Origin: a virus
Taxonomy: Duplodnaviria; Heunggongvirae; Uroviricota; Caudoviricetes
Reading direction: 5' to 3' (one strand)
Virus record (IMG/VR): IMGVR_UViG_3300035494_000066
Length of the DNA stretch: 64,000 nt
Shown: positions 3,569-20,227 of the stretch, one piece after another
How positions within the stretch are numbered: position 1 is the stretch's first letter
Layout of the letters: every line of letters starts with the position of its first letter
Position numbers and translations under genes: made by a program
The notes under the pieces: generated by a model
What the model was told of the DNA's origin: nothing
Seen by the model: only the letters and a program-made list of their open reading frames with translations
Database searches by the model: none

Positions 3569-3570
3569 AA

Positions 3571-3656: not shown

Positions 3657-3667
3657 ATTTTAAAAAT

Positions 3668-3752: not shown

Positions 3753-3757
3753 ATAAT

Positions 3758-3841: not shown

Positions 3842-3891
3842 GTAACTGAAGTAGCTAGATTTGAATCTATAACATACTCCAATGAAAAATT

Positions 3892-3965
3892 TGGTGGAGA
3901 CATGGAGAATCGAACTCCAATCACTACAGTGCAAGTGTAGTATAATACCGTTATACTATATCCCC
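3892..3965 (-). tRNA. tRNA-Ala (anticodon TGC) with G3:U70, copy 2
   Basis: Body is nearly identical to the copy at 2872-2945 (shared ~50-nt core). Acceptor and T-stem differ (ggggata/tgtctcc, tggagttcgattctcca). CCA encoded. Confidence 0.65.
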
Positions 3966-3967
3966 AT

Positions 3968-4043
3968 TGGCTCCCTGGACTGGATTCGAACCAGTAGCGA
4001 CTTGGTTAAAGCCAAGTGCCCCTACCTATAGGGCCCCCAGGGA
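3968..4043 (-). tRNA. tRNA-Lys-like with 6-nt anticodon loop (cTTTaa)
   Basis: All four arms are otherwise canonical: acceptor tccctgg/ccaggga, D gccc/gggc, T-arm actggttcgaatccagt, CCA. The perfect anticodon stem cttgg/ccaag encloses only 6 nt, ctttaa. Confidence 0.45.
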
Positions 4044-4044
4044 A

Positions 4045-4120
4045 TGGTGCTCGGTGATGGAATCAAACCATCCTGAAACTTGCTTGTAAGGCAAGCGCCT
4101 CCTCAATCGGCCAACCGAGC
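4045..4120 (-). tRNA. tRNA-Val (anticodon TAC)
   Basis: Hand fold. Acceptor gctcggt/accgagc, anticodon arm cttgc-cTTACaa-gcaag, T-arm gatggtttgattccatc, CCA. Confidence 0.65.
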
Positions 4121-4124
4121 AGTT

Positions 4125-4200
4125 TGGTTGTAGTGGTGGGATTTGAACCCACAAACCTTCACATTATGAATGTGCTGCTCTACCATTGAGCTACACTACA
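4125..4200 (-). tRNA. tRNA-Met (anticodon CAT), elongator-type (1:72 paired)
   Basis: Hand fold. Acceptor tgtagtg/cactaca, D gctc/gagc, anticodon loop tTCATaa, T-arm gtgggttcaaatcccac, CCA. Confidence 0.65.
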
Positions 4201-4566
4201 ATTACAACTTTCCTAAAATGTTAAAGAGCGTTTGTCTAATTACAGACATTAAAAAAGGGTGCCTTTGCACCCTTTTTATTAAATTCTTTTCTACTTTACG
4301 AGCAAGGGTGCAGTTTCGTAAAGTAATCCTTATAATCGCGAGCGAAGAAAATCTCAGCCACAATCGCAGGGCGAACATTAGCCATCGGCTTAACATTATT
4401 CTCTGCAATGTTGTTATGATTGATTACGTTGTTCATTTCTTGCTCTCTTTAAGTTATGTTGTACAGTATACTACGTTTTTTTCTACTGTCAAGTCTTTTT
4501 GTAAAACTTTTTAAATTTCTTTTTGTTTAACTTTGTAAATTGTATAGTTTTATTTATATCTGTTAA

Positions 4567-4596
4567 CTAAAAAACCAGAACTTTTTTGGTTTTTAA
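4567..4596. terminator. A-run/hairpin/T-run bidirectional terminator-like element (repeat copy 1)
   Basis: Sequence aaaaaacc(a)gaacttttttggttttt. A near-identical copy lies at 6705-6728. Confidence 0.45.
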
Positions 4597-4733
4597 CTAC
4601 TCGGATAACAAAAAGAACACTAATTATGTTGCGTTTGTAACATAGTTAACTAAACTGTTGTTGTGTATACGCTTAGTCTTAAATTGTAATCTATGCATTA
4701 ATTATACAGATTAGTTACACACTGTCAACATAA

Positions 4734-6197
4734 TTATTTCAAATTTTTAATCGGTATTAGTTCGGGATGTGCGCTGTAAAAATCGGTGTTGCGCTTCTGG
4801 TCAAACGACTCAGTGCTAGTTACAAATTTGTGGCTTAGATCATTTCGATTATTAAACTTGCGTAAGAAGTTAGTAACCCAATTTAGCTCAGTGTAGTTAC
4901 TACTCTGATACTTTTCGATTGCTAAATCCCTGAGCCATTGAGGAGCATTAGCTACACTAAACTCTGCAGGATCTGTAACAAAACCCCAAACTAAATTAGC
5001 GTTAAGTGTTTTCGATAGAGACACAACATTGTCTAGATACAATAAATTTTGTGTATTAACAGTAACAGAAAAACTCAACTTAGCATGTGCATTCTGCATG
5101 CAGAACTTAGAAAAATCGTTAAGATTTTCTGCAACTTCGTTCCATTTACCACCGCGTTGGATTTCAAATCGACGACCGACGTCATCGATGCTTGCTATGA
5201 TTTCTATAGATTTGAACCTCTGCAATAGTTGCATAATGTCTGGTTTATACACACTACCGTTTGTGTTGATGCTAATGCTCATGTTGTGTGCTTGCTTTAA
5301 ATCGATTAGCCTTGTTAACAACTTCTCTAAGTTAGGATTAATCAACGGTTCACCGCCTAGTAAGTGAACACTTTCGCAACTGTTGAAATCAATTTTAGAC
5401 AGAAAATCTTCCTCTAGAGGAATTTTCCCAAAGACTTCAAATGCTCTGAGATTGTTTTGTTCTTTAGCAACTCGTGTGCTTGCGTCAGGATTGCATATTC
5501 GACATTTAAAGTTACAAAATGAAGTAGCCGACACAGTTATGTCCCGGAGCTCAATGTTATCAAACCACCGAGTGTTGCAAGCGTGTAAAAACTTTTCAAT
5601 AAACTGTTGCCGTCTGCTAATTGCTCCTTGCTCTTCTTTTCTCCAGCATTCATTGCAGCCTGGGTGCTTAGTATTGCTGCTTATAGCAGCCCTAATCGAA
5701 GCGTACTGACTGTTATCCTCAATTGAGAAATTTCTATCTGTGATAGTAACGCTGTTAGAGTACTCACAGCACGGTTTTGCACTTTTATTGCTGCGAATGT
5801 TAATCATTCCGTACGGTGCAGGACAAAATGTTTCGGATAGTGCTGGGAAAGAGTCTAGCTGTATTGGTGCAGTTATAGTTCCTTCATAATTAACTACTTC
5901 AAAATCGATGTCTGAATAATCAACTATGTTGTTTCTGACGTATTCTATTTCAGCAGTTAAGTCTTGGGGGGTTTCGAGACGAACAAAACACAGTGAAATG
6001 TCGGCACGTAAAGCAGCAAATGCTAAATGGGCAATGTGCTGCCATGTCATCGGGTGCGATGTATATAGGACAATACGCTCGTCTGGTCTAAAATACGGTT
6101 TTGTGATAGCTTGAAAATAACGATACGCAGTTGAGTGTACATCACCTAATACTTCGCTCAAGTCTGCCTTACTAACTATATTAATTTCTGCGGTCAT
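4734..6197 (-). CDS. radical SAM enzyme, SPASM/twitch-type, with N-terminal Cys-rich domain (487 aa)
   Basis: CxxxCxxC motif (CNFKCRIC), GGEPL-like motif, NTNGS motif. N-terminal CxxCW...RRQQ motif is shared with the rSAM at 18300-19610. Confidence 0.75.
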   Translation of the reverse strand: MTAEINIVSKADLSEVLGDVHSTAYRYFQAITKPYFRPDERIVLYTSHPMTWQHIAHLAFAALRADISLCFVRLETPQDLTAEIEYVRNNIVDYSDIDFEVVNYEGTITAPIQLDSFPALSETFCPAPYGMINIRSNKSAKPCCEYSNSVTITDRNFSIEDNSQYASIRAAISSNTKHPGCNECWRKEEQGAISRRQQFIEKFLHACNTRWFDNIELRDITVSATSFCNFKCRICNPDASTRVAKEQNNLRAFEVFGKIPLEEDFLSKIDFNSCESVHLLGGEPLINPNLEKLLTRLIDLKQAHNMSISINTNGSVYKPDIMQLLQRFKSIEIIASIDDVGRRFEIQRGGKWNEVAENLNDFSKFCMQNAHAKLSFSVTVNTQNLLYLDNVVSLSKTLNANLVWGFVTDPAEFSVANAPQWLRDLAIEKYQSSNYTELNWVTNFLRKFNNRNDLSHKFVTSTESFDQKRNTDFYSAHPELIPIKNLK

Positions 6198-6328
6198 AGT
6201 ACCCTAGTGTCGTGAAAGTGCAGTTCGGCGTCAAATCCAAGCAGTCCGATTGTAACTCGAAAACCAGCATGGTCGCACAGTGCGGAAACGTTAACGTCGA
6301 CGCTGACGATTGTTGGTGTTTTGTACAT
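6194..6328 (-). CDS. small ORF (43 aa) translationally coupled to the radical SAM gene (stop overlaps rSAM ATG as ATGA)
   Basis: Hand translation MYKTPTIVSVDVNVSALCDHAGFRVTIGLLGFDAELHFHDTRVL. Weak RBS. Not in the ORF track because it is shorter than 60 aa. Confidence 0.3.
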   Translation of the reverse strand: MYKTPTIVSVDVNVSALCDHAGFRVTIGLLGFDAELHFHDTRVL

Positions 6329-6692
6329 ATTGGCTTCTAGCACTTTGTTAACTTTTGGAAAGCTAAATGCTTTGTGTACAACAGTAGACCAACGGTTAAC
6401 GCCGGGTCTGACAAGTTGGTATTAAACGAAATCATTTGCTCGAATCCTTATACTTTTCGACTGCAGACGCAATGCGTTGCTTAAGGTCTAAATATGATGT
6501 TGAGTAATACTCATCGTCGGCTAAGTACGGAACTGCTACCCGTTCTACAGTCTTCTTAAAAGTCCAGCACATCGACGTAACCAATTCACTCTCACGACTT
6601 AAGCCTCCCATCACGCGAACGTGTAAACATGCTTCTAAAAACTAGCTAGTGTTTCTTTCTTTTTATTTATTATAGTGTCTTTTTGCGTAGTG

Positions 6693-6998
6693 TCAACTAA
6701 AAAACCGAAACTTTTTTGGTTTTTTAACTTCGTTGACTCGAGTCAACAAGCTGTGCAGCACACGTTGATATTTATTATCGCCGTCTAACTCAAAACGTTC
6801 GAGGCGATAGTAAAAATCTCCATCTCGGCGTGTACGAAGCACTTTATCTGCGCACAAGTAGTCTGTGCGATCGGACACATTGCGAAGCACGAAGTCGTAC
6901 ATAGCAGGATCGGATGATCTTTCTACCCGATACACAGATCCTTTAAAGTAGATGTTATTGCCTAGTTGCAAATCGTTAACTACTTTTACATGCATCAT
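6693..6998 (-). CDS. hypothetical protein (101 aa)
   Basis: Minus-strand ORF downstream of a TTGACA-17-TATACT promoter at about 7020-7060. Confidence 0.45.
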   Translation of the reverse strand: MMHVKVVNDLQLGNNIYFKGSVYRVERSSDPAMYDFVLRNVSDRTDYLCADKVLRTRRDGDFYYRLERFELDGDNKYQRVLHSLLTRVNEVKKPKKFRFFS

Positions 6999-7058
6999 GT
7001 CTGTGTCCTTCTTAACGTTTATGTATTAAGTATACAGCCTGTATTGTTGTTGTCAACC

Positions 7059-7700
7059 CTATTTACACGTGATCTTACTAATTTTTTCCACTATGCTTGA
7101 GTATGTAGAAGACGTGTACTCGGAGTCTACTAGATACGGTGTCTCGTATACTTGTACAATCTGTGTAGCTTGTGAAATAAATTGGTCAAACTCGTTAACG
7201 TCGCGGTTCAACATAGTGAATTCTTTGATTAGTTGTCTCAAGGTGTTGTTGTGCTTTACTAATACCTGTTCTAGTTCTTCGAGCTCAGGAAATTGATCCC
7301 AGCTTAGCTCGCTTAGTAATTCGGTAACATAGTGACAACTGTTTGCAACATATCCGTTTAAGAATCTTGACGTGTTCTTGAGTGCAACATTGCAATCTGA
7401 CAGTAAAGTTTCGACGTGTGTGTATTTTTGATCAACAACACGTTGCTTAGAAACAAAGTCTAACGCTACGTATCGGCTTAACATCTTCTTTGTTGTGCAG
7501 AACTTCTTTGTAATAGCTTGTTTAATTAGATCAGTTTTGCCGTCAATTGCATCCACTATTAGCGCAATCTGGTCCTGCTGTTTGACAATAATTGCAGTAG
7601 ATTGTTCAATTACCCGGTCACGTTTTGCAGTAGCAACGTTAATGGCTTCTTTTAGAGAATCAATTTCTGCAGCCGGGACTTTGCGCAAATCAACTTTCAT
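7059..7700 (-). CDS. hypothetical coiled-coil protein (213 aa)
   Basis: Long minus-strand ORF. No domain recognised. Confidence 0.5.
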   Translation of the reverse strand: MKVDLRKVPAAEIDSLKEAINVATAKRDRVIEQSTAIIVKQQDQIALIVDAIDGKTDLIKQAITKKFCTTKKMLSRYVALDFVSKQRVVDQKYTHVETLLSDCNVALKNTSRFLNGYVANSCHYVTELLSELSWDQFPELEELEQVLVKHNNTLRQLIKEFTMLNRDVNEFDQFISQATQIVQVYETPYLVDSEYTSSTYSSIVEKISKITCK

Positions 7701-8520
7701 GAAGTTTCCTTTTTGTGTTTAGTGACATCTGTACTATGGTGAAGTTGACTAGATGCTGAGTTAATCTTTTTGTTAGCAGTAACTTTAATCACTGACGTGT
7801 TAACAAGGACTACAGCAACAGCTATCATCGACGCAGCGTTAATAACAAATATCTCTAGTCCGTATAAAAATAGTTCCACAGCAGCTACTATCTGCTAATC
7901 AGTTGCGTAGTTAATTGTACACATTCGCTGCTAGTGTGTCAATTGAGACCCGGTGAGAGTGGCTCCGAATATAAAGTAGTCAGCGACGAACGTAAGTTCA
8001 GCACCGACGAAACTGATGCGTAGTACCTCCCTGAATAGTTCCACATCTGCTTAATTACAAACTACGCAACTATTACCCGGGCAGTGTAGGCAATGTTACT
8101 GAAGATTAGTGTCGACAGTAACGGTATTTCACTTGCACTAACGACAGCGGCATTATATAATGCCGCTGTCGTACACATAACTTACTTGTGCAGCTATTAA
8201 CACTGCGATATAGTAGTTGGTATACCGATGAATGAAGCGTACAATATGCGCAGTTATAAGCAGTCTGTACGCAACATACACAATGTTTGCAATCACTAAC
8301 TCCATGTTAGTCAGCAACGATACTTTCTTTGTATACAACTGGCTTACCGGTGTGTTGCATAAAGTCTACTAGGTTCCGGTAAGTTACTGGTGTAATTTGT
8401 TTTCGAAGTGCAGTTACTGCAGCTGTCATGTCGTCGCCGATAATCCATTCATACTCGCCGGTTTACCGACTTCTGATTTTCGAGACCAGCGCATTCAACC
8501 ACTCTGCCAACTTGCTAAAT

Positions 8521-8595
8521 TTGGCCTGCCTACCAGGACTCGAACCCGGATTAAAGGAGTAGAAATCCTCTGTGTTATCCGTTACACTATAGGCA
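8521..8595 (-). tRNA. tRNA-Arg (anticodon TCT)
   Basis: Hand fold. Acceptor ctgccta/taggcag, D gtgt/acac, anticodon arm gagga-tTTCTac-tcctt, T-arm ccgggttcgagtcctgg, CCA. Confidence 0.65.
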
Positions 8596-8825
8596 GGTGA
8601 AGTTTTACTTTGTGTGCTGTTTCCAGCGATTTAAATCTCGGAGCAGTTTATCTGCTCGATCAAATACATTTTGTAACATTAACCGTTCGTAGTCAGTTGG
8701 GTCATAACTAGGCGTGCCAACTGTTTCTTCTACTACCGCAGATCGAAGTTCTGCAATTTGAAGCAGCTTGTTGTCAATCCAACTTGTAGTATGGATGCTC
8801 ATTATTACTACTCCTTTTTAATGTA

Positions 8826-8911
8826 TGGTACCGATGAACGGACTCGAACTGTTACGCTATCTCTAGCAGAAGATTTTGAATCTCCTGTGTCTACCATTCC
8901 ACCACATCGGC
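8826..8911 (-). tRNA. tRNA-Leu (anticodon CAA), type II
   Basis: 86 nt. Acceptor gccgatg/catcggt, 3-bp D stem, anticodon arm ggaga-tTCAAaa-tcttc, 15-nt variable arm, T-arm aacagttcgagtccgtt, CCA. Confidence 0.6.
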
Positions 8912-9005
8912 ATAGTATGCGTTTTTACTTATCAGCGTAAGGCCGCACCCCCTGCTAATGAACTTTTTTAACGTAGTGTTCGTCTACGTTCACGGGCGTG
9001 TTGTT

Positions 9006-9186
9006 TGGTGCAAACGACGGGACTCGAACCCGCAATTACAGTTAACAAGGGCATTACTCCTTGCTAGTACAAGATTGGAAAAGCAGTCATCCCGCCTTGA
9101 AACCATGCTCCTGTGCTACTCGCTGTTAGGATTTTACTCCTCACTGTCCTTTTTCAGTGTGCGTATGCCATTTCCGCCACGTTTGC
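9006..9186 (-). ncRNA. tRNA-like RNA: canonical T-arm and 3' acceptor half with CCA, plus a matching 5' acceptor strand 181 nt away (insert of ~105 nt)
   Basis: 3' part gcgggttcgagtcccgt-cgtttgc-a-cca at 9006-9035. The complementary gcaaacg lies at 9180-9186. The interior contains a hairpin cactg-aaaaagga-cagtg. Confidence 0.3.
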
Positions 9187-9196
9187 ATGTTAAAAT

Positions 9197-9270
9197 TGGT
9201 GGGTCTGCCTGGAATCGAACCAGGACCGAGCGGTTATGAGCCGCCTGCTCGACCGTCAAGCTACAGACCC
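9197..9270 (-). tRNA. tRNA with CAT anticodon (Met elongator or Ile2-type; 1:72 paired)
   Basis: Hand fold. Acceptor gggtctg/cagaccc, D gctt/gagc, anticodon arm ggcgg-cTCATaa-ccgct, T-arm cctggttcgattccagg, CCA. Confidence 0.65.
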
Positions 9271-9963
9271 TTAAACTTTATTACTTGCGTAGTATACGCA
9301 TTTTTATTTATTATGTCAAGTATTTTTACATCACACTATACAAGCAGGCGTCTTAGCTGCTCTAGTATTAAAGTAACACCGCATTCTAGACCAACTCGGT
9401 ATAGTTACTTCCTAGACTTCTCTAGTTGACACAATACATGGTCATATAACTGATCGTGTTATATCGCGTCATGTCACTTGCTGTGTGCCGCAGCTATACA
9501 ATGTGATGTAAAAATACGCCTCGCGAAGCGTCACTAGTACCAATTTATCCAGTGATCTCATCTACACCAATGGAGGTCACTGTGATCCGGTGGTAATCGC
9601 CATATGCCTGATCCTGTATTAGGGCACCTGGTTTTACTGGGTTGTAGTTGCCGGTGCTGATCTCCGGCTTGCTGGTTGTGACATCTTAGGTTCCGTTTCA
9701 AACCATACAGCGCTGTATGTACGCGGTTCCCAGCGGCAGTCGGGCCAGCGACCATCTCAAGTCTTGAGATTCTTCGTGCGAGGATAAGTCGCACTTCATC
9801 TCGCGCATCAGCCTGCGCATTTACTACAACTAGAAGCATACTGCTGTTAGTGCTTGTATCGTCCGCACTCTTATACTCAGACAGTCTGCCGCTGCTCTCA
9901 CACCAACTCGCGTATTCTGGCGCAACAGCAATATGCTTGTAGTTTTAGTAAAATACAGTAATC

Positions 9964-10040
9964 TGGTGCCAGTAGTGGGATTCGAACCCACACTTTACAG
10001 AATCTCGACCTGCTACCTCTGCCAATTGGGCTATACTGGC
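9964..10040 (-). tRNA. tRNA-like (type undetermined; possibly degenerate or Leu-GAG-like)
   Basis: Perfect acceptor gccagta/tactggc, T-arm gtgggttcgaatcccac and CCA. D and anticodon arms fold poorly by hand. Confidence 0.35.
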
Positions 10041-10056
10041 TATCTCTTATATTGTT

Positions 10057-10085
10057 ATTGTATTTTCTATGTGCTTTTGTGTCAA
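10057..10085 (-). promoter_or_regulatory. sigma70-like promoter TTGACA-17-TACAAT directed into the tRNA-like element at 10040
   Basis: Minus-strand reading gTTGACAcaaaagcacatagaaaaTACAATaac. Consensus -35 box with 17-bp spacer. Confidence 0.5.
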
Positions 10086-10633
10086 CTACTTTTTGAGAGT
10101 TTTTACTGTTTCTTTTAGCTCGCATTCTTTAATTTTACGGATTGTAATGTAAGCTCCATAAATCATTACTGCTGACATAAACACAATCCCAGCGACACTA
10201 GGAATTACAGTCGACAACGTGTATGGATCGATATTTGGCATAGTTAGTCCTGTTGCAGGTTAGTATAATTTCAGAATGGAAGAATTAGCGCAACAATTGT
10301 GGAATTATACTTGCCTTTGTGCTTAGAGTAGCCTTTTTTAATAGCCTTTTTCTTATCAGTATGTGTAACGGCTTTGTTGTACTTTAATGCATTCTTTGCA
10401 ACGTAGTTTCTGTTATTCATCGTCTATCTCGTTTTTATTTTCTTTTTTGCTATGTTGCTGCTTGAGCTCGTGTGCTTGTTTGATCACTGATGCCTCGCAC
10501 GAAACGTTGATATCTCGCAGTCGAAAACCGCATGCTTGAATGTAGTTAATAGCAGTCCTGTAGTCCATTTGCAGCTCCGTTTAGTTTCTTATTTACCTGA
10601 ATATTATAGCAGAAACAGACTACAGGTCAACCT

Positions 10634-11080
10634 TTAATGTGATTTTTTCTCTTCGTCGTAGACACGTTTCCGCAGTGATGACGAACTAAACGAATGTTCG
10701 CGATCATTGAACACACACTTGTCCATGTGACCTGAGATGTCTTTGCCTGTAAAGTGCTTGGTTTTGTATTCATCGCCAAGAATACGAACATCATAGTCTA
10801 AGCACAGCAACAAGTCGTGCAAATCCTTCTCTGTGTGGTACACAATTGTGTGGTCTACATAACGTGAGGATGCTACTTGTATTTGGCGCTCAACGATCGA
10901 CTGTACTGGCTTATTCTTTGACGGACGATCTGCACTCGGGTCAATTTGGATTGCTACAATCAAATAGTCACAATGTTTCTTTGCGTCCCGGAACATCAAG
11001 TGATGCCCTGCATGACACAGGTCAAACGCACCAGCAGTAATGCCTACAGTCAAATTCTGTCTATTAGGAATGTCGATCAT
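10634..11080 (-). CDS. cytidylyltransferase-family nucleotidyltransferase (TagD / RfaE domain II-like, HxGH)
   Basis: GAFDLCHAGHHLMF (HxGH), DYLIVAIQID, ILGDEY and a C-terminal SSSSLR motif resemble glycerol-3-phosphate cytidylyltransferase. 148 aa. Confidence 0.6.
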   Translation of the reverse strand: MIDIPNRQNLTVGITAGAFDLCHAGHHLMFRDAKKHCDYLIVAIQIDPSADRPSKNKPVQSIVERQIQVASSRYVDHTIVYHTEKDLHDLLLCLDYDVRILGDEYKTKHFTGKDISGHMDKCVFNDREHSFSSSSLRKRVYDEEKKSH

Positions 11081-11409
11081 AAGTCTCTCTCATATTTTTC
11101 AAAAATAGCGATGAACACCAAGTCATCAGAGCTGCTATCGTTGTATACACGGTGGAAAGCGCCATCAGGTATCATAAAAAGAGAACCGCTCTCAACTTGG
11201 TAGAAATCGTTGTCGATTTGTATGCGGCCTGTCCCGGAATGAAAGATGTAAACCTCTTCAAGCCCTGGATGAGAGTGGCCGCGTGTCTGCATCTCAGGAT
11301 GCAATGTTGTTTTTGATACTGTTAGATGATTTAGGAACGTGTTATCTTCGAGTAAGTAAGTCTCGTTGTCTTTGATAACGGTTCCGTTTAAGTTTTGGAT
11401 TGATGTCAT
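11077..11409 (-). CDS. cupin-domain protein (110 aa)
   Basis: GHSHPGLEEVYIFHSGTGRI cupin motif. Start overlaps the upstream gene stop by 4 nt (coupled). Confidence 0.55.
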   Translation of the reverse strand: MTSIQNLNGTVIKDNETYLLEDNTFLNHLTVSKTTLHPEMQTRGHSHPGLEEVYIFHSGTGRIQIDNDFYQVESGSLFMIPDGAFHRVYNDSSSDDLVFIAIFEKYERDL

Positions 11410-11439
11410 ATTAATTGTGTATTATCTTTTTACCCGATA

Positions 11440-12075
11440 CTAAAGTATACTGCTTAGGAAAAGCTGGATATCCAGCTTTTCCTTAGAGCTTGCAGCAACT
11501 ATCTCAATAACCCGGGCGCGACCAACTACTCGCCCGCCGATTTTAAAGCATACACCGCGGTCAGTTTTTTCGATTGCAATTGGAGTTTTACGAGGGTTGC
11601 TGCCGCGGCTGTAAATGGTCATAGCAGCCGAACCGCCTTTTTGTACAGCTTCTTTCACAGCATTAACTGCAGCAGCAGCCTGCTTTGCACCAACTTCTAC
11701 ATCTGCATCAATTGCAGCTTGTTCAGCGTCACGCGCTGCAGCGTATTCGGCTTCTTTTTTAGCCCGGAACTCTGCATGCATTTTGCCTAGCTTGTCTAAG
11801 TCAATTGCTGCTGCAACTTCGGTGATTTCTTTAACTGCGTCAGCAAAATAAGAATATGCTTCAACATCGGACTCTACTTCTTTAGTGTCGCGTCCACCGG
11901 AAGAAACTGAAATTTCACAAGACCATTTCTCATCGCCGAACCCTACTGGACGAATATACAACCGGATCACGTCCGACCAAAAGCCTTTTACTTTTACTGA
12001 AACAGTTGGACGGGATTCAACAAGTTCTTCGTAGCTCGGAACAGAGTAAGAGTAGTTGTTGCTCATTTCTATCAC
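11440..12075 (-). CDS. hypothetical protein with Ala/Glu-rich central region (211 aa)
   Basis: Minus-strand ORF preceded by the TATAAT-leader promoter motif at 12083-12105. Confidence 0.5.
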   Translation of the reverse strand: MIEMSNNYSYSVPSYEELVESRPTVSVKVKGFWSDVIRLYIRPVGFGDEKWSCEISVSSGGRDTKEVESDVEAYSYFADAVKEITEVAAAIDLDKLGKMHAEFRAKKEAEYAAARDAEQAAIDADVEVGAKQAAAAVNAVKEAVQKGGSAAMTIYSRGSNPRKTPIAIEKTDRGVCFKIGGRVVGRARVIEIVAASSKEKLDIQLFLSSIL

Positions 12076-12144
12076 CTCAGTCGCTTAACTTATGCTTGTA
12101 TTATAGCACCGAGTGATACGAATGCAAGTGGTTTTTGCAATTAT

Positions 12145-12414
12145 CTAATTCTTTTCAACTAACTCAAGCAGTACGGATAGTCCGTGTGGGTTAGTTCCGT
12201 GCACAGTCCAGCGCTGACTTATGTCGTTAACGTTAATGCGGGCGTCTAACTCGTACGACACACTGTCAGACATTGTTACAACAAGCTTACAATATGCATT
12301 GTCGACTTTTTGAAACCCAGAAACATTAACGCTGTTGATTGTTAGCTCAGGACTGGTTGGCTTTCTTCTTTTGTACCAACTTTGCGGCATTACTTTAAAT
12401 GTGTATTCGGACAT
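12145..12414 (-). CDS. hypothetical protein (89 aa)
   Basis: Minus-strand ORF in the gene array. Confidence 0.4.
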   Translation of the reverse strand: MSEYTFKVMPQSWYKRRKPTSPELTINSVNVSGFQKVDNAYCKLVVTMSDSVSYELDARINVNDISQRWTVHGTNPHGLSVLLELVEKN

Positions 12415-12432
12415 TTAGTACCTTGTACAGCA

Positions 12433-12780
12433 CTACAACACCTTTAGTAATTTGAGTGCGTTTTTAGTTAATTGAACGTATGTGTAGTTTGTCGAGTACG
12501 GCTTGAACCCGTTGTACCGCTTCGTGGGAGAACTGAGTGATTCTCGTATACGGACTAAGTATCCTGTTTTGATTAGTTTTTGGAAATCTGCATCTCGGTT
12601 AATGACAAAGCAGTATCTGCGATTAACGGGTATTCGGAGATCACGACCGTAATCGTTAATGAACTTGAGTATAGCGTAGCGTCGAGGTTGACCCGACGAC
12701 ATTTGGCATATTTTGCGAAACGCTTCTGCTTTTGTTTCAACATGTATCGATTGGTTGAATGTCTTTTGCAAGTGCTTCAT
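12433..12780 (-). CDS. hypothetical basic protein (115 aa)
   Basis: Minus-strand ORF. Lys/Arg-rich. Confidence 0.4.
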   Translation of the reverse strand: MKHLQKTFNQSIHVETKAEAFRKICQMSSGQPRRYAILKFINDYGRDLRIPVNRRYCFVINRDADFQKLIKTGYLVRIRESLSSPTKRYNGFKPYSTNYTYVQLTKNALKLLKVL

Positions 12781-12794
12781 ACTATACTCGAAAT

Positions 12795-12870
12795 TGGCAG
12801 GTCGGGCGAGATTCGAACTCGCAACCTTGGTGTTTGGAGCACCCTGTTCTGCCGTTGGAACTACCGACCT
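12795..12870 (-). tRNA. tRNA-Trp (anticodon CCA)
   Basis: Hand fold. Acceptor aggtcgg/ccgacct, D gttc/gaac, anticodon loop cTCCAaa, T-arm gcgagttcgaatctcgc, CCA. Confidence 0.65.
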
Positions 12871-13057
12871 ATTTTTCTGTTATATCGAACTGACGCGTAG
12901 TATTTACACGTCTTAGCATACGAACTGTCGCTGTGACAGCTGTAATCTGCTTTAATGCACAACCCGTTTCGTGTAGTGCCCCAGTCCTTTATGCGAATAA
13001 AGTTAGTGCAGTTCCCACATGTTCTTCCAGTTGGCATATACATTTACTCTAAAATTG

Positions 13058-13131
13058 GCAGGGGTACCAAGAATTGAACTTGGACCACTGGAGTCAAAGG
13101 CCAGTGCTCTACCATTAAGCTATACCCCTAA
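13058..13131 (-). tRNA. tRNA-Gln (anticodon TTG)
   Basis: Hand fold. Acceptor aggggta/tacccct, D gctt/gagc, anticodon loop cTTTGac, T-arm ccaagttcaattcttgg, CCA. Confidence 0.65.
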
Positions 13132-13136
13132 ATTTG

Positions 13137-13211
13137 GAGGCGTGTGTGGGAATCTAACCCACAAAAACATGATTTGCAGTCATGCCCGTTAACATTCCGG
13201 CAACACGCCAA
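13137..13211 (-). tRNA. tRNA-Cys (anticodon GCA), U73
   Basis: Hand fold. Acceptor ggcgtgt/acacgcc, anticodon arm catga-cTGCAaa-tcatg, T-arm gtgggttagattcccac, discriminator T, CCA. Confidence 0.6.
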
Positions 13212-13356: not shown

Positions 13357-13385
13357 AGTATATTTATCTCTTACGTTCTTGTCAA
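13357..13385 (-). promoter_or_regulatory. sigma70-like promoter TTGACA-17-TATACT upstream of the Cys/Gln/Trp tRNA island
   Basis: Minus strand cagTTGACAagaacgtaagagataaaTATACTata. Confidence 0.5.
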
Positions 13386-13909
13386 CTGGTTATTTTTGGT
13401 TTGTCGACAATAAAATTTGCATATCGAGTTAAAAATCCTCTTAAACAGTCAAGCCTAGCCTGCGTTTTAGTCTGACTATCTGCTACTAGCACGTCGACAG
13501 GAACAGAAACTTGTCCTACTTGGAACAGCTCGTCTGCTAATTCTTTAGATTCTTTAAGACCTTTTCCAGACACTGACCGAATTGATTTAATTAATGTTAC
13601 TTTATCTAAGCCAGCAGCCCGGCGAGCATCGCAGCGCTTATTGTATTCGTCCCCGCGGGTACCCCCGTCGCAGAACGCTTCTGGGACCTTTAAGCGGATC
13701 GTATCGTCTGATCCTATACCTAGTCTGTATGTAGATGATAGTGCAGCCATTAGATACGTGTCGATAACTGTAATGTCGTACCGGTTTACTACTTCTTCGA
13801 TTTCTTGCAAGATTCTTAGAGTAGTATCCGCTGACTCGGTAAGTGCATCGAGCTCCGACTTAAGCCAGTGTATTAAGACGGTATTCTCAAATGATTTCAT
13901 ATAAGGCAC
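13382..13909 (-). CDS. protein with C-terminal ribosomal L7/L12 C-terminal-domain-like region (175 aa), paralogue 1
   Basis: DKVTLIKSIRSVSGKGLKESKELADELFQVGQVSVPV aligns with the bL12 CTD core (vIKavRgaTGLGLKEAKdLVE). Paralogous to 13927-14427. Confidence 0.55.
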   Translation of the reverse strand: MPYMKSFENTVLIHWLKSELDALTESADTTLRILQEIEEVVNRYDITVIDTYLMAALSSTYRLGIGSDDTIRLKVPEAFCDGGTRGDEYNKRCDARRAAGLDKVTLIKSIRSVSGKGLKESKELADELFQVGQVSVPVDVLVADSQTKTQARLDCLRGFLTRYANFIVDKPKITS

Positions 13910-13926
13910 TCTCCTTAATAATTATC

Positions 13927-14427
13927 TTAATGTACACTGACAATAAACTGTTTAAACTGTTGATTAAACTCTCGGATAGCAGCAAGGTATTCAGTTACAT
14001 CTTCTAGTGACATTGTGAGCTGTGTTGCAGGTATTGATATCGAAGTTGATTTGCGAATCATCAATTCGTCTACTGAATTTTTTGCATCTTTAAGCAAAAC
14101 TCTAGAAACTTGTCTGATAGCTTTTATCATGCGTACACGATCTATGCCTAGATCAGATAACTTGCTGTATAGACCCTGACGCACTGCTAGTTGCTGCAGC
14201 AGAACTTCGATGTCTGCTGGCAATGCTAAATCGATTTGCACAGCAGATCCTTTGCCGGTTGAAAATTGATCAGTTAATACTGCTGCTACATAGCCACTGA
14301 TAAAAGTAATGTCGTACTTGTTTAAGGTGCATTCGATGTCGTTAAGAAGATCATGTACGTTTACAGTTCCGCCAGAGATTCCGTTAACAAGCCAGTTGAT
14401 GGCAATTGTATTATTGAGCGGTTTCAT
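13927..14427 (-). CDS. protein with L7/L12 CTD-like region (166 aa), paralogue 2
   Basis: Shares NKYDITFISGYVAAVL and RVRMIKAIRQVSRVLLKDAKNSVDEL blocks with the upstream paralogue. Confidence 0.5.
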   Translation of the reverse strand: MKPLNNTIAINWLVNGISGGTVNVHDLLNDIECTLNKYDITFISGYVAAVLTDQFSTGKGSAVQIDLALPADIEVLLQQLAVRQGLYSKLSDLGIDRVRMIKAIRQVSRVLLKDAKNSVDELMIRKSTSISIPATQLTMSLEDVTEYLAAIREFNQQFKQFIVSVH

Positions 14428-14453: not shown

Positions 14454-14708
14454 TTACTGTTGACTCTGACTCAGTAATGCTAACATAGCATATTCCTCCG
14501 GAGCCTTGCATAAATTAGTTCGATATACGTTAGCTTGCTCAGACCAGGTATTAGTGACTCGCTCTACGCGAACCGTTTTCGGATTAAACTTAACAATCCT
14601 GCCGATGTCTAAGCATCTAGAATATGGAGGCGTGTACACAACCAAGTCGCCGACACTAATGTCTTGTCCTAGCATGTCAGTCATTGGATATTCTACATTA
14701 GTAGCCAT
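14454..14708 (-). CDS. hypothetical protein (84 aa)
   Basis: Minus-strand ORF downstream of a TTGACA-17-TATAAT promoter at 14734-14762. Confidence 0.45.
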   Translation of the reverse strand: MATNVEYPMTDMLGQDISVGDLVVYTPPYSRCLDIGRIVKFNPKTVRVERVTNTWSEQANVYRTNLCKAPEEYAMLALLSQSQQ

Positions 14709-14733: not shown

Positions 14734-14762
14734 TATTATACACGACTAGCAGAGTGTGTCAA
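14734..14762 (-). promoter_or_regulatory. sigma70-like promoter TTGACA-17-TATAAT
   Basis: Minus strand gagTTGACAcactctgctagtcgtgTATAATata. Confidence 0.5.
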
Positions 14763-15376: not shown

Positions 15377-16381
15377 TTATAGCTCTCGGTTGTTTATGTA
15401 TTTAGTAAAATCTCCATAAACAGTAATCACGTATCGCGGCTCGTTGCTATAGTTACACGCTGCATGTGCAAATTGATGAGTGTTCACTAGCATGGGATGC
15501 GTGAGGTTCGAAACACCACCGTGCATGAACTTCAATGGCGCTCCTGGGCTCGGAACCTTAACTGGAATATACATTTTTGGACTAACCGGAGCTTCACATC
15601 CGTCTATATGAATTTCAACAAATCCACCTGGCTCAAGTTTGTTGATATAAAGGCCGTACAGCTCAGTTATACCTAAGCTCAAAAGCCAATTGGTAACATA
15701 CGGTAGCTCGTCACGGTGTTCGTTGACACTATAAACATTAGACCAGTCGGTGTTACCTGGGCCTTTGTTGTGGTCGCGGAGAACTGACCATCCTTTGTGT
15801 CGGCTGTAATGTGTAGCACTGCTAGACTGCGAAAGTAACTCGAGCACTTCGGTTGCAGCAATATCTTGATTAAATTCTTCGTTAACAACATAGTACGGCG
15901 CAGTATCTGACCCTTTTTTATAGTAAAACGGACCGTACGGATGCTCGAAAAAACTGCGCACAGAAGTTGACTCAACTACCTCCGGAACAGAAGTTCCGCT
16001 GTCGCACATTACGTAGTACTCGTCAAACAAGTCAGTGCCGTACTTACCGTCTGGGAGTACAGTTTTGTAATGGGCTCGCATAACACCTAGATTGCTATGG
16101 ACCATTAACTTAAAATGTCCTGTTTTTTGATCAACATACGTTGCAGGACAGGTTATTACGCCGGTTTGAGATTCCTCAAACCACCCGGTGTAAAGGATCT
16201 CACTAATCGATTGCCCGTTAATTAGGATATCGTCGATTTTAATAAGATCACCTTCGGGTTTAACCAAAAGCATTTGCCAGCCATTGTGCATAAGAGCTTC
16301 GTGACGGCCAGTGATTACATTGCCTGATTGTAATAAAGAAAAAGCACTAGGTGTGCCTAGTACTTTTATTGTTGAACTCAT
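15377..16381 (-). CDS. hypothetical protein (334 aa); C-terminal HxD...H pattern (EIHID ... THQFAH) could indicate a second cupin/oxygenase fold
   Basis: Long ORF tightly packed between the oxygenase-like gene and folE. Only weak motif evidence. Confidence 0.45.
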   Translation of the reverse strand: MSSTIKVLGTPSAFSLLQSGNVITGRHEALMHNGWQMLLVKPEGDLIKIDDILINGQSISEILYTGWFEESQTGVITCPATYVDQKTGHFKLMVHSNLGVMRAHYKTVLPDGKYGTDLFDEYYVMCDSGTSVPEVVESTSVRSFFEHPYGPFYYKKGSDTAPYYVVNEEFNQDIAATEVLELLSQSSSATHYSRHKGWSVLRDHNKGPGNTDWSNVYSVNEHRDELPYVTNWLLSLGITELYGLYINKLEPGGFVEIHIDGCEAPVSPKMYIPVKVPSPGAPLKFMHGGVSNLTHPMLVNTHQFAHAACNYSNEPRYVITVYGDFTKYINNREL

Positions 16382-16382
16382 G

Positions 16383-17054
16383 TTAACCTCGCGCTAGTGA
16401 CATAAACTCTGCCCTGGTAGTAGGATCTTCTTTAAAAGCACCGCCTAGCTTGCTTGTTACAGTGCTAGACCCAGTATCTTCTACACCACGCGCTGCTACA
16501 CAATAGTGTTTTGCGTCAATGACTACTGCTACATCTTCTGTTTCGAGAATGTAGCACAAGGCGTGAAAGACTTGCTCAGTAAGCCGTTCCTGGATCTGCG
16601 GCCGTTTCGAGAAGTACTCGACTACCCTGTTAATTTTTGACAATCCTAGGACTTTTTCGTTAGGGATATAGCCAACAGTTGCAAAACCGTCAATGACAAC
16701 AAAGTGGTGTTCGCAGTTGCTCTTGACATTCACATTACGTTCTACAACCATTTCGTTGTAACCCATTTTGTTTTCGACTGTTGTACACTTAGGAAACGCA
16801 TCTGGATCTAAGCCCCAAAACACTTCGCCTACGTACATTTTTGCGACCCGCTTCGGCGTTTCGGCTAAGCTATCGTCACTTAGGTCTAGACCTAAGGTTT
16901 CCATGATGTCTTTAAACTTTGTTTCAATAATATCGATTTTTGCAGTGCGGGAAAGATCTGTTTCAATTGTAGGAGTCGATACGCCTACGCTTGCAAGATG
17001 TTCGTGAACCATACGACCTAATTCAGGGTCGCATTTTGTTTTGTTAAAACTCAA
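16383..17054 (-). CDS. folE: GTP cyclohydrolase I (FolE), TTG start
   Basis: Conserved FolE core NCEHHFVVIDG and overall FolE-like sequence, 223 aa. A TTGACA-17-TATAAT promoter lies at about 17130-17180. Confidence 0.8.
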   Translation of the reverse strand: MSFNKTKCDPELGRMVHEHLASVGVSTPTIETDLSRTAKIDIIETKFKDIMETLGLDLSDDSLAETPKRVAKMYVGEVFWGLDPDAFPKCTTVENKMGYNEMVVERNVNVKSNCEHHFVVIDGFATVGYIPNEKVLGLSKINRVVEYFSKRPQIQERLTEQVFHALCYILETEDVAVVIDAKHYCVAARGVEDTGSSTVTSKLGGAFKEDPTTRAEFMSLARG

Positions 17055-17173
17055 TTGTATTTCTCCTTTAGATAGCGTCTAACGTTAACGCTCAACGGAC
17101 TAGTGTATAGTCGAATGTCACCGTTGTGTGACAGAGTATTTATTTTAAATTATACAGTTAAGACGTATTCTTG

Positions 17174-17590
17174 TCAACTATATCTTCCTTTTCCAGGGAT
17201 AACATTCCTTACACCTCCGGTTGGATCTTCAGTGTCATTGTTACGTCTGAATATCAAATGTACATGCGGGTACATAACAGTTTGTCCGGCGCTTTTGCCG
17301 ACATTGATCCCGATGTTGTATCCGGTGATATCAGTTGCCTCGCTTGACACATTTTGGTTTCCTAGCTCGAGTGCTGCCCGGGTACAGCTAGCAATGCATT
17401 CTGCAGAGTTTGTTTTTGGAACAAATAACATATGTCCCGGAGTAACCGGGTACTTGTCATTAAATGCAACATAATCTTTAGTTACGAACGCCACATCGTC
17501 CCATGGTGCCGTACCAGCTTGCTGTGCCCGCTGTAAGTCGTTAGTCAAGGTAGTACACTCCGTTATTCCAGTTGCTAGGCAATCCGGCAT
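17174..17590 (-). CDS. HIT-family (histidine triad) nucleotide hydrolase/transferase
   Basis: HVHLI histidine-triad motif near the C-terminus. 138 aa. Confidence 0.6.
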   Translation of the reverse strand: MPDCLATGITECTTLTNDLQRAQQAGTAPWDDVAFVTKDYVAFNDKYPVTPGHMLFVPKTNSAECIASCTRAALELGNQNVSSEATDITGYNIGINVGKSAGQTVMYPHVHLIFRRNNDTEDPTGGVRNVIPGKGRYS

Positions 17591-17966
17591 CTAAATACTC
17601 GTTAATGCGATCTGCTAAGACAGTATAAAACGAATCTAGCTCGCCTCCTAGCGATCCTACTAACATTGAAATCTTGTTTAGTGCAGCGTCTAGCTGTCCG
17701 GCTCTGTATTCGTCGATCATGGACTCGTGTAGTAGTTTAATGGCTCTCAGACTAGGCAAATCATCTAGCGACAGCTTTCCTGCGTCGATAAGAGCATACG
17801 ACTGTGTAGTAGACTGCGCCTGGTCAGAGCTGCTGCCAAAAACATCAAGTCGGAACAGCGTATGTCGATCTTTGATATCGTTCGTTAAGTTGTTTTCTAA
17901 AATTATATCCATAACTCGCCTTATTGTGTTATATACCAACCGTACTCTTTTATATCGTGTCTCCAT
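17541..17966 (-). CDS. hypothetical protein (141 aa)
   Basis: Minus-strand ORF overlapping its neighbours within the operon. Confidence 0.4.
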   Translation of the reverse strand: METRYKRVRLVYNTIRRVMDIILENNLTNDIKDRHTLFRLDVFGSSSDQAQSTTQSYALIDAGKLSLDDLPSLRAIKLLHESMIDEYRAGQLDAALNKISMLVGSLGGELDSFYTVLADRINEYLDAGLPSNWNNGVYYLD

Positions 17967-18370
17967 CGATAAAACGGTTTCGGAATATGTAACGTTAGTG
18001 TGCCGTTAAATCCTAAGTATGGCATCGGAGGTAGTTCACCGAATTCAGTATGGTACTTTCCGAATCGAAAAATATTCTCTGCCACATTAACATCGTCTAT
18101 GTATAACTCGTCGATTATAACAGCAGTTTCTTTCTCTACATAGTGCTTATTCTGCATGGATACTGTGATTGTAACGTCGTCTAACAACGGTATAGACGTG
18201 TTAACGTGTACATCATTGTACAAGTCGCAATCTAATAGAGTAATGCCGTTTACTGTCACAGTAACGCCAGGGAAGCCGGCGTCGACTATAGGACGTAACT
18301 TAGCTCTTACTTGAAGACGTAGGTCGCTGGTATCCGTGCCGGATAAAAAGTTCTGTATACACTGGGACAT
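17921..18370 (-). CDS. hypothetical protein (149 aa; true start may be internal)
   Basis: Overlaps the rSAM gene by about 70 nt. Confidence 0.4.
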   Translation of the reverse strand: MSQCIQNFLSGTDTSDLRLQVRAKLRPIVDAGFPGVTVTVNGITLLDCDLYNDVHVNTSIPLLDDVTITVSMQNKHYVEKETAVIIDELYIDDVNVAENIFRFGKYHTEFGELPPMPYLGFNGTLTLHIPKPFYRWRHDIKEYGWYITQ

Positions 18371-19610
18371 AATCTAATATTGAATTTTTCCTTACTGCTT
18401 CTATCTTAGTTATAAACGATATCAAGTCAGCAAACCTATAAGTGTCACTAGGCGCCGAGTTAAGATAGTTGATATAACTTGTCACATCATGATACAAACT
18501 TGATTCTACTACAGACGGCGCTCGGGCATTAGGATTAGAAGCACTCCTTGACACCTGTTCGGAGAATGTAGAGTCTCGCCAATTGGTAAGATCCTCGACA
18601 ATCGTTGCTCGAACACTGTCGGGCAAGACAGTTGGCCGCATGTACTCTGGAAATTCCAAGAAATTACAACTCTCTACGCTCATACTGTTTGCAAGTGCGT
18701 ACTCGTATATAGGGATTAGCTTGTGTACAGTAAAGATGGTAGGTGTTGTTCGGAGTTGGATTAACCATTTAACTCCGTCGTTAAGACTTGCCCAGCGATC
18801 TAGCTCAGCTTTTGCATCAGCAATGTTAGATCCGTATCGCACATAGTCATTGACTTCGTCTAGTGACTCAATACTTAGTCCGACATGCACTTGCCTAAAC
18901 TCGTGTAACAAGTGAACGATACTATCGTCCCAGCTGGATAAGTTTGTAGTAAACCCGATTATAACTTTGTTTGCTACACCAGCTGCTACAATTTCATTAA
19001 TTAAACGCTTAAATGCTGGGATAATTAACGTTTCACCGCCGATGAAATGCAAGTATGCCGGCTGATTCAGCTTAACTAGATCATTAACAAATTTGTCAAC
19101 TAGGTCTGGATCATCAGTCCAGTTTTTGTGAGAGTGCGAATCGATTATTTTTGCTTTTATCAAATCGTGCGCTAGTCGGCTACTCGATTCTGGTTTGCAA
19201 AATATACATGCATTATTGCAGTAATTTCCTAGATCTATTTGCCAGTCGACCGGAAATATCTGAGCAGTAGAATCCGTTAGCCTGTCTTTCCATTCTGAGC
19301 TTAGTAGAGATTTTTCAAACGCAGTTATGTCGATACCGGTCTTAATTAGCTGCTGTGCTCTACCACTGGTTTTTCCATACTTGTCCATGTTGTAACACGG
19401 AGTACAATTATGCACAACTTCGCCGTTGACATGTTGTTGCCTAACAGCTTGCATCACATTATTAAAGTATTCCAAAGGAGACATATCGGATATGTGGGGC
19501 ATTGTAGATGGGCGATACGCCCATCTACAATAGTTGTAGTGCCCCGACGCAGTTATCCGGAAATGAAACCAAGGGCTCGAGCAAAATGTTGTTTTGAGGT
19601 CAGACATCAA
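18300..19610 (-). CDS. radical SAM enzyme, SPASM/twitch-type, with N-terminal Cys-rich domain (436 aa)
   Basis: CNNACIFC (CxxxCxxC), [14 protein letters not shown] and ESLDEV blocks parallel the 4734-6197 protein. N-terminal CTPCY...GRAQQ motif. Confidence 0.75.
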
Positions 19611-20227
19611 TTTCTTTTAGTAACTACTTCGTCGGCAAAACCGTTTGCAACTGCTTCACTGGCCGACAAAAACGTATCGAATTTCATTGTTTCGAACAGT
19701 TCGTCGTATGTCTTGCCAGCAGTGTTGTGATGCTCGTACAGTTGTGTTAGCCGTTCGTTTAGGCGCTTCGATTCTTGCAAGTGTCGTGCTGCATCTTCGA
19801 ATTCAAGTTCCTGGACGTGCACAGATCCGGTAGTACCTCGCGTTCCTGAGCTTACTCGGTGGATCATTGTGCGAGACTCTGGTAGTACAAACCGCTTGCC
19901 AGGAGCGCCAGCTTGAGCTAGGAAACTACCCATTGAAGCTGCTTGGCCTAGGACAATAGTCGATACATCAGGGCGAATAAATTGCATAGTGTCGTAAATT
20001 GCCAAGCCTGCAGTTACTGAGCCACCAGGAGAATTGATGTACATAATAATGTCTTCAGTTGGCGATTCTGCTTCTAGGAATAACAGCTGTGACACAACTA
20101 AGTTAGCCATACTGTCAGTGACCGGGCCGTTGAGCATCACAATGCGGTCTTTCATGAGTCGACTGTAAAGGTCGTAACTACGCTCGCCCTGTGATGTTTG
20201 TTCGACTACGATGGGTACTAGGTTCAT
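19607..20227 (-). CDS. clpP: ATP-dependent Clp protease proteolytic subunit ClpP homologue
   Basis: ClpP family. [10 protein letters not shown] active-site Ser, conserved His/Asp context. 206 aa. Stop overlaps the rSAM start. Confidence 0.8.

Follow-up and report, generated by a model that had tools for sequence, protein, structure and literature searches.

Do some phages carry the factor-binding part of the ribosomal stalk on proteins of their own, and if so, what would such proteins be for? The question is raised by two adjacent genes, gpA and gpB, in a 64,000-nucleotide stretch of virus DNA (IMG/VR record IMGVR_UViG_3300035494_000066), which we call the window. A first-pass annotation, made from the letters alone, had proposed that the two gene products are tandem paralogues in which a region resembling the CTD, or C-terminal domain, of ribosomal protein bL12 (L7/L12, RplL) is fused to a new N-terminal domain, and that they might act as decoys or join the stalk. 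IF2, EF-Tu, EF-G and RF3 share the bL12 CTD as their landing site on the ribosome. Judged by profile comparison, a segment of about 30 residues in gpA and gpB, spanning helices alpha4 and alpha5, is homologous to this domain, and we consider it very probable that the two proteins represent a diverged bL12-CTD-type module in a phage protein that does not belong to the stalk.

Sequence relationship of gpA and gpB to the bL12 CTD

Both open reading frames (ORFs) lie on the minus strand where the first-pass annotation had placed them, and the two peptides that it quoted are found in their translations. gpA (13382..13900) encodes 172 aa and is identical to public protein P0001; gpB (13927..14427) encodes 166 aa, is identical to P0002, and has the same architecture while being more diverged. 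The bL12-like part is an alpha4-turn-alpha5 motif. In gpA it reads GLDKVTLIKSIRSVSGKGLKESKELADEL (residues 97-125; 13526..13612, minus strand) and is aligned with G62-E88 of Escherichia coli bL12 by hidden Markov model (HMM) alignments and a residue map; in gpB it reads GIDRVRMIKAIRQVSRVLLKDAKNSVDEL (residues 94-122; 14062..14148, minus strand), as placed by Pfam and HMM alignments and the residue map. The proteins had been described as ending with this segment, which is incorrect: about 45 residues follow it in both.

Pfam Ribosomal_L12 (PF00542) matches gpA at residues 99-128 (E 1.1e-4, 22.9 bits) and gpB at residues 90-122 (E 1.3e-3), and the NCBIfam bL12 model matches the same stretch of both. 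In this profile test, which had been suggested as a check, both matches are just sub-threshold, and a relative described below, P0003, passes the PF00542 gathering score (26.5 vs 25.9 bits). A search of all PDB sequences with a profile of the two paralogues returned bL12 as each of its top 14 matches (best E 8e-4). Searched exhaustively with HMMER, a library of 1.84 billion cluster representatives yielded 77 bL12-CTD-bearing proteins, with E values down to 2e-15, and every one of these matches runs through family profile positions ~98-130 only. When the three-member family of gpA, gpB and P0003 was compared with 116 bL12-CTD instances, hhalign reported a probability of 96.9% and an E value of 1.8e-10. 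A bL12-CTD HMM run against the 1041 six-frame ORFs of the window matched only gpA (8.8e-7) and gpB (5.6e-5), with the next best at E=3. The sequences behind this HMM were retrieved by the gpA/gpB profile, so that this last result is not fully independent, whereas the Pfam model is. The proposed match to the bL12 CTD is thus real for the alpha4-alpha5 helix pair but does not extend to the whole domain, as the significant part covers only profile positions ~8-37 of 67, the two Pfam matches together lying at ~5-37.

The residues retained within the helix pair point in the same direction. gpA is identical to bL12 at K65, V66, I69, K70, R73, L80, K81, E82 and K84 (residue map). At these nine positions gpB is likewise identical except for the conservative changes K65R and E82D, and it has lost the Gly-x-Gly turn; P0003 carries V66I. 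K65, K70, K81 and K84 are conserved bL12 lysines (PMC10602876), of which K65 and K70 influence the binding of EF-Tu (PMC10602876, which cites Kothe 2004 and Diaconu 2005). In the family of three, no region is more conserved than the motif stretch, with 11 of its 29 positions invariant as against 32 of 172 overall. Beyond the four lysines, the bL12 residues counted here as factor contacts are those that we take to be such from the literature; with this list, gpA retains the bL12 residue at all nine implicated positions.

A small family of tandem paralogues

BLASTP aligns gpA with gpB over their full length at 32% identity (E 4e-20), in agreement with the tandem duplication that had been claimed, and by this alignment the neighbouring genes encode full-length paralogues. 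The HMMER search turned up a single additional relative that matches over the full length, P0003 (171 aa, E 6e-34), which is 43-44% identical to gpA and 27% identical to gpB; the family thus has three members with pairwise identities of 27-44%. On these identities gpA is the orthologue of P0003 and gpB is more distant. gpB may be either an old duplicate that was lost in the relative or a recent, fast-evolving copy.

Word-indexed searches for further family members returned only the gpA/gpB proteins, P0003 and two motif-level matches, and when the family alignment was used to scan IMG/VR and JGI metagenome contigs, no further members came up. No match was found by megablast of 4 kb of the region against 50,697 phage records. 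With gpA as the tblastn query, cultured phages gave no match at E<=0.01 and motif-level matches only at E<=10. The PHROG families matched by gpA and gpB (35727, 26927 and 23470) are each of unknown function.

The start codon of gpA is most likely the ATG at 13900. It is preferred because the Shine-Dalgarno sequence AAGGAGA (13910..13916, minus strand), read 9 nt upstream of it, is at the right spacing and because it is also the start used in public gene calls (P0001); the GTG at 13909 given by the ORF lister as an alternative is less likely. P0001 occurs on public contigs of up to 302,565 bp. As whole proteins gpA and gpB are mildly acidic (isoelectric point, pI, 5.5-6.1), and their C-terminal domains are basic (pI 8.9-9.1).

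Extent of the CTD fold

We used AlphaFold2 (AF2) and structure searches to examine the region on either side of the helix pair. The first AF2 run was made with an alignment of the two paralogues, containing no bL12 rows, and its three-dimensional model was unusable (predicted local distance difference test score, pLDDT, 39.8). The secondary-structure string from this run was used alone, as a control free of bL12 bias; it comprises a strand at 67-71, helices at 83-95, 100-111 and 115-128, a strand at 130-134 and a helix at 147-165. A second run, whose 52 aligned rows also contained bL12-CTD-type domains, reached a pLDDT of 72.1 and a predicted template modelling (TM) score of 0.61, and reproduced the order of elements with an additional final strand at 164-166. 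In AF2 the elements follow one another as beta1, inserted helix, alpha4, alpha5, 8-residue insertion, beta2, alpha6 and beta3, with three helices predicted for the N-terminal part of gpA (residues ~1-60). The best-predicted stretch of the second model is alpha4-alpha5 (pLDDT 87-93), and the last third scores 58-71; the model leans to the bL12 fold because bL12-CTD-type domains were present in its alignment.

The hhalign alignment extends to position 64 of the 73 positions of the CTD, with low per-column confidence; it pairs gpA P134 and G155 with the CTD's conserved Pro and Gly and leaves an 8-residue insertion after alpha5. Foldseek matches against the PDB were mostly ClpS, with E values of 0.4-2 and TM scores of ~0.55 normalised to the target, none of them significant. 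The top viral match was an uncultured-phage protein labelled "Ribosomal protein L7/L12, C-terminal" (E 0.042, not significant), behind which came phage ClpS and the bL12-CTD protein of a Ralstonia phage, also not significant. ClpS and the bL12 CTD share one fold, so these matches speak only weakly for the fold class. In the structural test of the earlier proposal, the predicted order of elements is compatible with the bL12 CTD, insertions apart, and no significant fold match was obtained. A full beta-alpha-alpha-beta-alpha-beta CTD fold in gpA and gpB is plausible, with moderate support.

The N-terminal domain and the relation to full-length bL12 and ClpS

In bL12 the N-terminal domain dimerises and anchors the protein to uL10. 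The N-terminal domain of gpA and gpB was compared with this domain in several ways. Exhaustive HMMER searching of the 1.84 billion cluster representatives gave no relatives of it outside gpA, gpB and P0003, and in this respect its description as novel was accurate. Alignment of the family with five bL12 N-terminal domains by hhalign gave E 0.17 and a probability of 0.4%, Ribosomal_L12_N (PF16320) has no match in gpA or gpB at E<=10, and the two sequences contain no Ala/Gly-rich hinge. The full-length bL12 model TIGR00855 scores gpA at 20.8 bits and gpB at 13.5 bits, compared to a cut-off of 84.4, and aligns over model positions ~66-95 of 125 only. By sequence comparison gpA and gpB are not bona fide bL12, and the suggestion that they could join the ribosome stalk is disfavoured by the same results.

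Two other identities were considered and rejected. By eye, the gpA segment ILQEIEEVVNRYDIT resembles LISAMEEKFGVS of bL12, as a full-length diverged bL12 would; the hhalign result for the N-terminal domain led us to reject this candidate. Membership of the ClpS family was rejected at the sequence level in view of the absence of a Pfam ClpS match at E<=10, with only the resemblance in fold class remaining. The hhalign comparison of gpA/gpB with E. coli ClpS gave E 0.57 and a probability of 0.1%, and the ClpS pocket motif NDDYTP is not present in gpA or gpB. Neither protein matched a helix-turn-helix (HTH) family in Pfam (E<=10) or NCBIfam, or a DNA-binding family in Pfam (E<=10).

Possible role in infection

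The explanation that best accounts for the data as a whole, and which we advance tentatively, is that gpA and gpB are early proteins in which an orphan N-terminal domain is joined to a bL12 CTD-type domain that would bind translation factors away from the stalk. The alpha4/alpha5 face of bL12 touches EF-Tu, EF-G, IF2 and RF3 at their G domains; away from the stalk, the equivalent face of gpA and gpB might still bind a translational GTPase or else the GTPase-associated centre. Self-association, possibly by pairing of gpA with gpB, or targeting might come from the N-terminal domain. Early in infection, translation factors would then be titrated or redirected, alongside the large tRNA set of the phage. 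The decoy idea of the first-pass annotation is a plausible conjecture. Links of the module to translation exist in other phages: in UNO-G1W1 it has an RF-1/GGQ domain as fusion partner, and the bL12-domain protein of Salmonella phage FSL SP-076 was detected in 70S fractions (PMC6375957). Taken by itself, the factor-binding mechanism is a possibility that we regard as doubtful on the present sequence evidence.

Several observations weigh against factor binding by a bL12-type domain. gpA and gpB score 3.0 and 6.4 bits, respectively, under the PF00542 gathering score of 25.9, and when the ~45 residues after the motif are set against the latter half of the CTD, hhalign gives P 0.014 and a probability of 3%, which is not significant. 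The GLGLKEAKDL-type motif is also conserved in many non-ribosomal cellular repeat proteins, so its conservation alone is no proof of factor binding. The neighbouring genes give no functional hint in Pfam or PHROGs. In addition, the isolated bL12 CTD binds factors only weakly, and a simple decoy would therefore need a high copy number or avidity.

A more specific proposal is that gpA and gpB mimic bL12, either by binding a translational GTPase off the stalk (for example at EF-Tu helix D or the EF-G G' domain) or by docking on uL10/uL11 through the N-terminal domain, and that they rewire factor recruitment early in infection in concert with the 29 tRNAs. We consider this improbable. If it were true, possible outcomes would be that phage translation is favoured or that EF-Tu is shielded from abortive-infection systems, and the stalk-factor interface would then have its first case of viral hijacking with a defined mechanism. 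With the factor-contact residues as their best conserved part, gpA and gpB (~170 aa) are reasonable small candidates for testing factor binding.

Alternative explanations

The main alternative to off-stalk factor binding, which we rate as less likely than not, is that the helix pair is a generic, HTH-like unit for binding protein or nucleic acid that has been re-used with no link to translation factors, and that gpA and gpB are early host-takeover proteins with some other target. In keeping with this, ~146 of the 262 domain instances in the retrieved proteins are the helix pair only, set in architectures that vary widely and often include a membrane anchor; many cellular repeat proteins, some of which look secreted or membrane-anchored by eye, strongly conserve this motif; and the phage bL12 module also occurs in unrelated contexts such as rIIB-like proteins (PMC6375957). 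The basic C-terminal domains would suit a generic module as well, but the proteins as wholes are mildly acidic and neither has an HTH or DNA-binding match in Pfam. The positions that are conserved are, moreover, exactly the bL12 factor-contact residues, and one fusion partner in phages is a release-factor domain. It is exceedingly improbable that the resemblance is a chance one between helical segments rich in Lys, Leu and Glu, or that the ORFs are spurious. At ~30 residues the match is short, and in Pfam it is sub-threshold for gpA and gpB alike, but three independent models (Pfam, NCBIfam and the PDB profile) agree, the E value of 2e-15 stands after correction for 1.84 billion proteins, and only two of the 1041 ORFs match. 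The paralogues and the 44%-identical orthologue also keep an open frame and the same architecture, and a strong Shine-Dalgarno sequence precedes gpA. From the HMMER, hhalign and window-scan sequence comparisons we regard chance resemblance as effectively refuted.

The remaining alternatives assign the proteins to known machinery. As surrogate stalk proteins, gpA and gpB, perhaps as a heterodimer, would replace host bL12 on uL10 by means of a non-homologous N-terminal domain. The layout of an N-terminal helical domain followed by a CTD-like domain mimics that of bL12, which acts as dimers where here there are two paralogues; bL12 is also exchangeable, and a phage bL12-domain protein has been detected in 70S fractions (PMC6375957). 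We nevertheless judge this reading quite improbable, as the N-terminal domain is unlike that of bL12, the flexible Ala/Gly hinge is missing, the full-length bL12 model falls far below its cut-off, and the related phage has a single copy. Less probable still is a ClpS-like adaptor, in which the C-terminal domain would be a diverged ClpS type working with the ClpP of the phage. The ClpP gene (19607-20227) is 5 kb away and phage ClpS proteins do exist, but all of the sequence evidence leads to bL12 and there is no Pfam ClpS match. The fold scores are all non-significant and, as ClpS and the bL12 CTD share their fold, do not discriminate between the two.

Genomic context and source phage

gpB and gpA follow a gene for an 84-aa DUF7205 protein (14454..14708, minus strand), identified as an ORF that is syntenic in a related phage and presumed to be the first gene of an early unit. 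Upstream of these three genes is a consensus sigma-70 promoter, TTGACA-16-TATAAT, with 12/12 matching positions (14735..14762, minus strand). A second promoter-like site, TTGACA-17-TATACT (11/12; 13357..13385, minus strand), overlaps the gpA stop codon and stands ahead of the tRNA genes. The window genes are almost entirely on one strand. The T4-type late motif TATAAATA occurs three times in the 64-kb window, which is the chance level, and is not found upstream of the gpB/gpA pair. DUF7205-gpB-gpA looks like an early transcription unit, and the window like an early region; the promoter sequence suggests that gpA and gpB would be expressed early. A further 12/12 sigma-70 promoter (TTGACA-N16/17-TATAAT) was observed at 17149-17177 (minus strand), upstream of a GTP cyclohydrolase I gene, placing two perfect sigma-70 promoters (17149-17177 and 14735-14762) less than 2.5 kb apart.

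Directly downstream of gpA, the genes for tRNA-Cys, tRNA-Gln and tRNA-Trp (12795..13209, minus strand) open the tRNA region in the direction of transcription. The region holds 29 tRNA genes on the minus strand (window positions 18-13209), interspersed with small ORFs, and includes duplicated tRNAs (Pro-TGG x2, Ile-GAT x2, Asp, Phe, Glu, Tyr and Ala) as well as three Met-CAT. The only related phage fragment, of 1483 bp, contains, in this order, a DUF7205 homologue, a single gpA-like gene (encoding P0003) and tRNA-Cys/Gln/Trp; with the order conserved, the location heading the tRNA region is kept, unlike the copy number.

Two features of the tRNA region are recorded here as side observations. 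The tRNA gene at 3968-4043 (minus strand) has an abnormal anticodon arm: ARAGORN gives its identity as "???" with a 2-nt anticodon "tt", its Rfam tRNA score is 46.9 bits, and in its fold a stem of 6 bp (ACUUGG/CCAAGU) carries a loop of 6 nt (CUUUAA), which would widen to 8 nt if the closing G-C pair opened. Read as C-U-UUA-A, the loop would present a UUA (ochre-reading) anticodon, yet TAA is an ordinary stop codon nearby, for example in gpB. A Cys-rich 60-aa ORF (MYMPTGRTCGNCTNF...; 12861-13043, minus strand), a candidate from the ORF list, lies between tRNA-Gln and tRNA-Trp.

The large subunit of a T4-type topoisomerase II has 36% identity to its counterparts in T4-like phages of Aeromonas and Vibrio, and this, together with the 29 tRNA genes, bears out the phage origin assumed in the first-pass annotation. 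Pfam and PHROGs place a phage-type DNA ligase, ClpP, GTP cyclohydrolase I and a radical-SAM protein near the pair. The source is an uncultured, divergent T4-like jumbo phage. A cluster at 15377-20227 (minus strand) encodes GTP cyclohydrolase I (E 1.6e-62), a HIT-family protein, the radical-SAM protein, ClpP (E 1.8e-63) and a 334-aa protein with a weak match to Asp/Arg-hydroxylase (2-oxoglutarate-oxygenase cupin; E 0.004). GTP cyclohydrolase I together with the radical-SAM protein hints at nucleotide modification, by a deazaguanine or another pathway.

Comparison with known systems

Relative to bacterial bL12, gpA and gpB have a homologous alpha4-turn-alpha5, the nine key residues (two of them conservatively changed in gpB) and a compatible predicted order of elements. 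They differ in length (166-172 aa vs ~120 aa), in being without the bL12 N-terminal domain and hinge, and in a ~25-residue, helix-bearing insertion between predicted beta1 and alpha4 as well as the 8 residues after alpha5; the second half of their domain is not detectably similar to the bL12 CTD. ClpS belongs to the same general alpha/beta fold class and supplied the best structural matches to the gpA model, but it has no sequence relationship to the proteins and its pocket motif was not seen in them.

Among the proteins retrieved by HMMER (P0004-P0080) are bL12s whose CTD is duplicated, together with a sizeable and seemingly uncharacterised group of non-ribosomal cellular proteins in which the CTD or the helix pair (~30 aa) is repeated 2-6 times in tandem; their 262 domain instances divide into 116 full CTDs and 146 helix pairs only. 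Pfam DUF6793 overlaps some of these repeats, and P0006, P0009, P0016, P0036, P0007 and P0066 have terminal hydrophobic segments or signal-peptide-like starts by eye. Two further proteins, P0081 and P0082 (127 aa; positions 2114-2497 of a 9315-bp ENA metagenome scaffold, L007), combine a different N-terminal region of ~55 aa with a bL12 CTD-like domain. The sequence after alpha5 (DEVFAGRVVGLIVE...CIVA) resembles that of gpA (DELFQVGQVSVPVD...FIVD), so that they bridge gpA and canonical CTDs. The locus looks phage-like, with many small ORFs and a NadR-like CTP_transf/NUDIX gene.

Seven cultured phages and many uncultured ones were reported by Mizuno et al. to encode bL12 domains (PMC6375957). 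Most often the domain forms part of a larger polypeptide that is otherwise unrelated; genomic contexts vary, the residues that contact uL11, EF-G and EF-Tu are retained, and acquisition has occurred repeatedly (PMC6375957). Examples are the proteins of Salmonella phage FSL SP-076 (418 aa), Erwinia phage Ea9-2 (724 aa) and Ralstonia phage RSB3 (98 aa); that of FSL SP-076 was detected in 70S ribosome fractions, and affinity purification of a phage bL12-domain protein with ribosomes was unsuccessful (PMC6375957). gpA and gpB agree with these proteins in carrying a bL12 CTD-type module within an unrelated phage polypeptide with the factor-contact residues kept, and fall within the definition of such a module in an otherwise non-ribosomal phage protein (PMC6375957); the weak tblastn matches of gpA also fall in the same phage groups. 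In contrast, the Mizuno proteins have no full-length homology to gpA and gpB, whose N-terminal domain has three known members, and come from genomes of <80 kb, whereas the gpA/gpB contig is 302 kb and T4-like. The gpA/gpB domain is also more diverged, being sub-threshold in Pfam, and is tandemly duplicated.

Tandem pairs are known as well. Streptomyces phages of cluster BE1 have two adjacent genes annotated "L7/L12 C-terminus domain" and ~39 tRNAs (PMC12509530). Like gpA and gpB, the BE1 pairs (Riptide 258/259; Bmoc gp3/gp4) are adjacent paralogues of ~145-165 aa with the helix pair in mid-protein, in a tRNA-rich phage. We confirmed the tandem pair in Bmoc, where gp4 and gp3 (L008:1643-2692) are adjacent and of 144 and 162 aa; gp3 matches PF00542 (E 6e-10) and gp4 (RKIRCIKKLRETYPTMDLRAAKSIIESL) is too diverged for Pfam. 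The N-terminal regions of the Bmoc proteins are unrelated to those of gpA and gpB, by inspection only the helix pair appears to be present with no beta-alpha-beta after it, and the BE1 phages are siphoviruses of Actinobacteria, unlike the T4-like source of gpA and gpB. Bmoc is thus a second, independent case of tandem duplication in a tRNA-rich phage.

In Pseudomonas phage UNO-G1W1, CDS0179 (160 aa; L009:2252-2734; PP551948.2 96036-96518) joins an RF-1/GGQ-type domain (PF00472, E 2.3e-15) to the bL12 helix pair (PF00542, E 1.2e-8; residues 89-116, profile positions 10-37), and reads GAGGM where release factors have GGQ. The homologous gene in the Otagovirus phage VCM is annotated prfA. The N-terminal partner in this Otagovirus fusion is a release-factor/peptidyl-tRNA-hydrolase domain, and gpA and gpB have the orphan helical domain instead.

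With embedded phage bL12 CTD modules (PMC6375957) and a tandem pair (PMC12509530) already in print, the novelty originally claimed for the locus was overstated. gpA and gpB are a modest addition that extends a known class and does not open a new one, and their family is tiny, with three sequences in 1.84 billion cluster representatives. They provide a compact and highly diverged example, apparently driven by an early promoter, at the head of the tRNA region of a T4-like jumbo phage. Within the established class to which they belong, they are distinguished by their orphan N-terminal domain, their diverged, insertion-bearing CTD and the T4-like jumbo-phage genome in which they occur.

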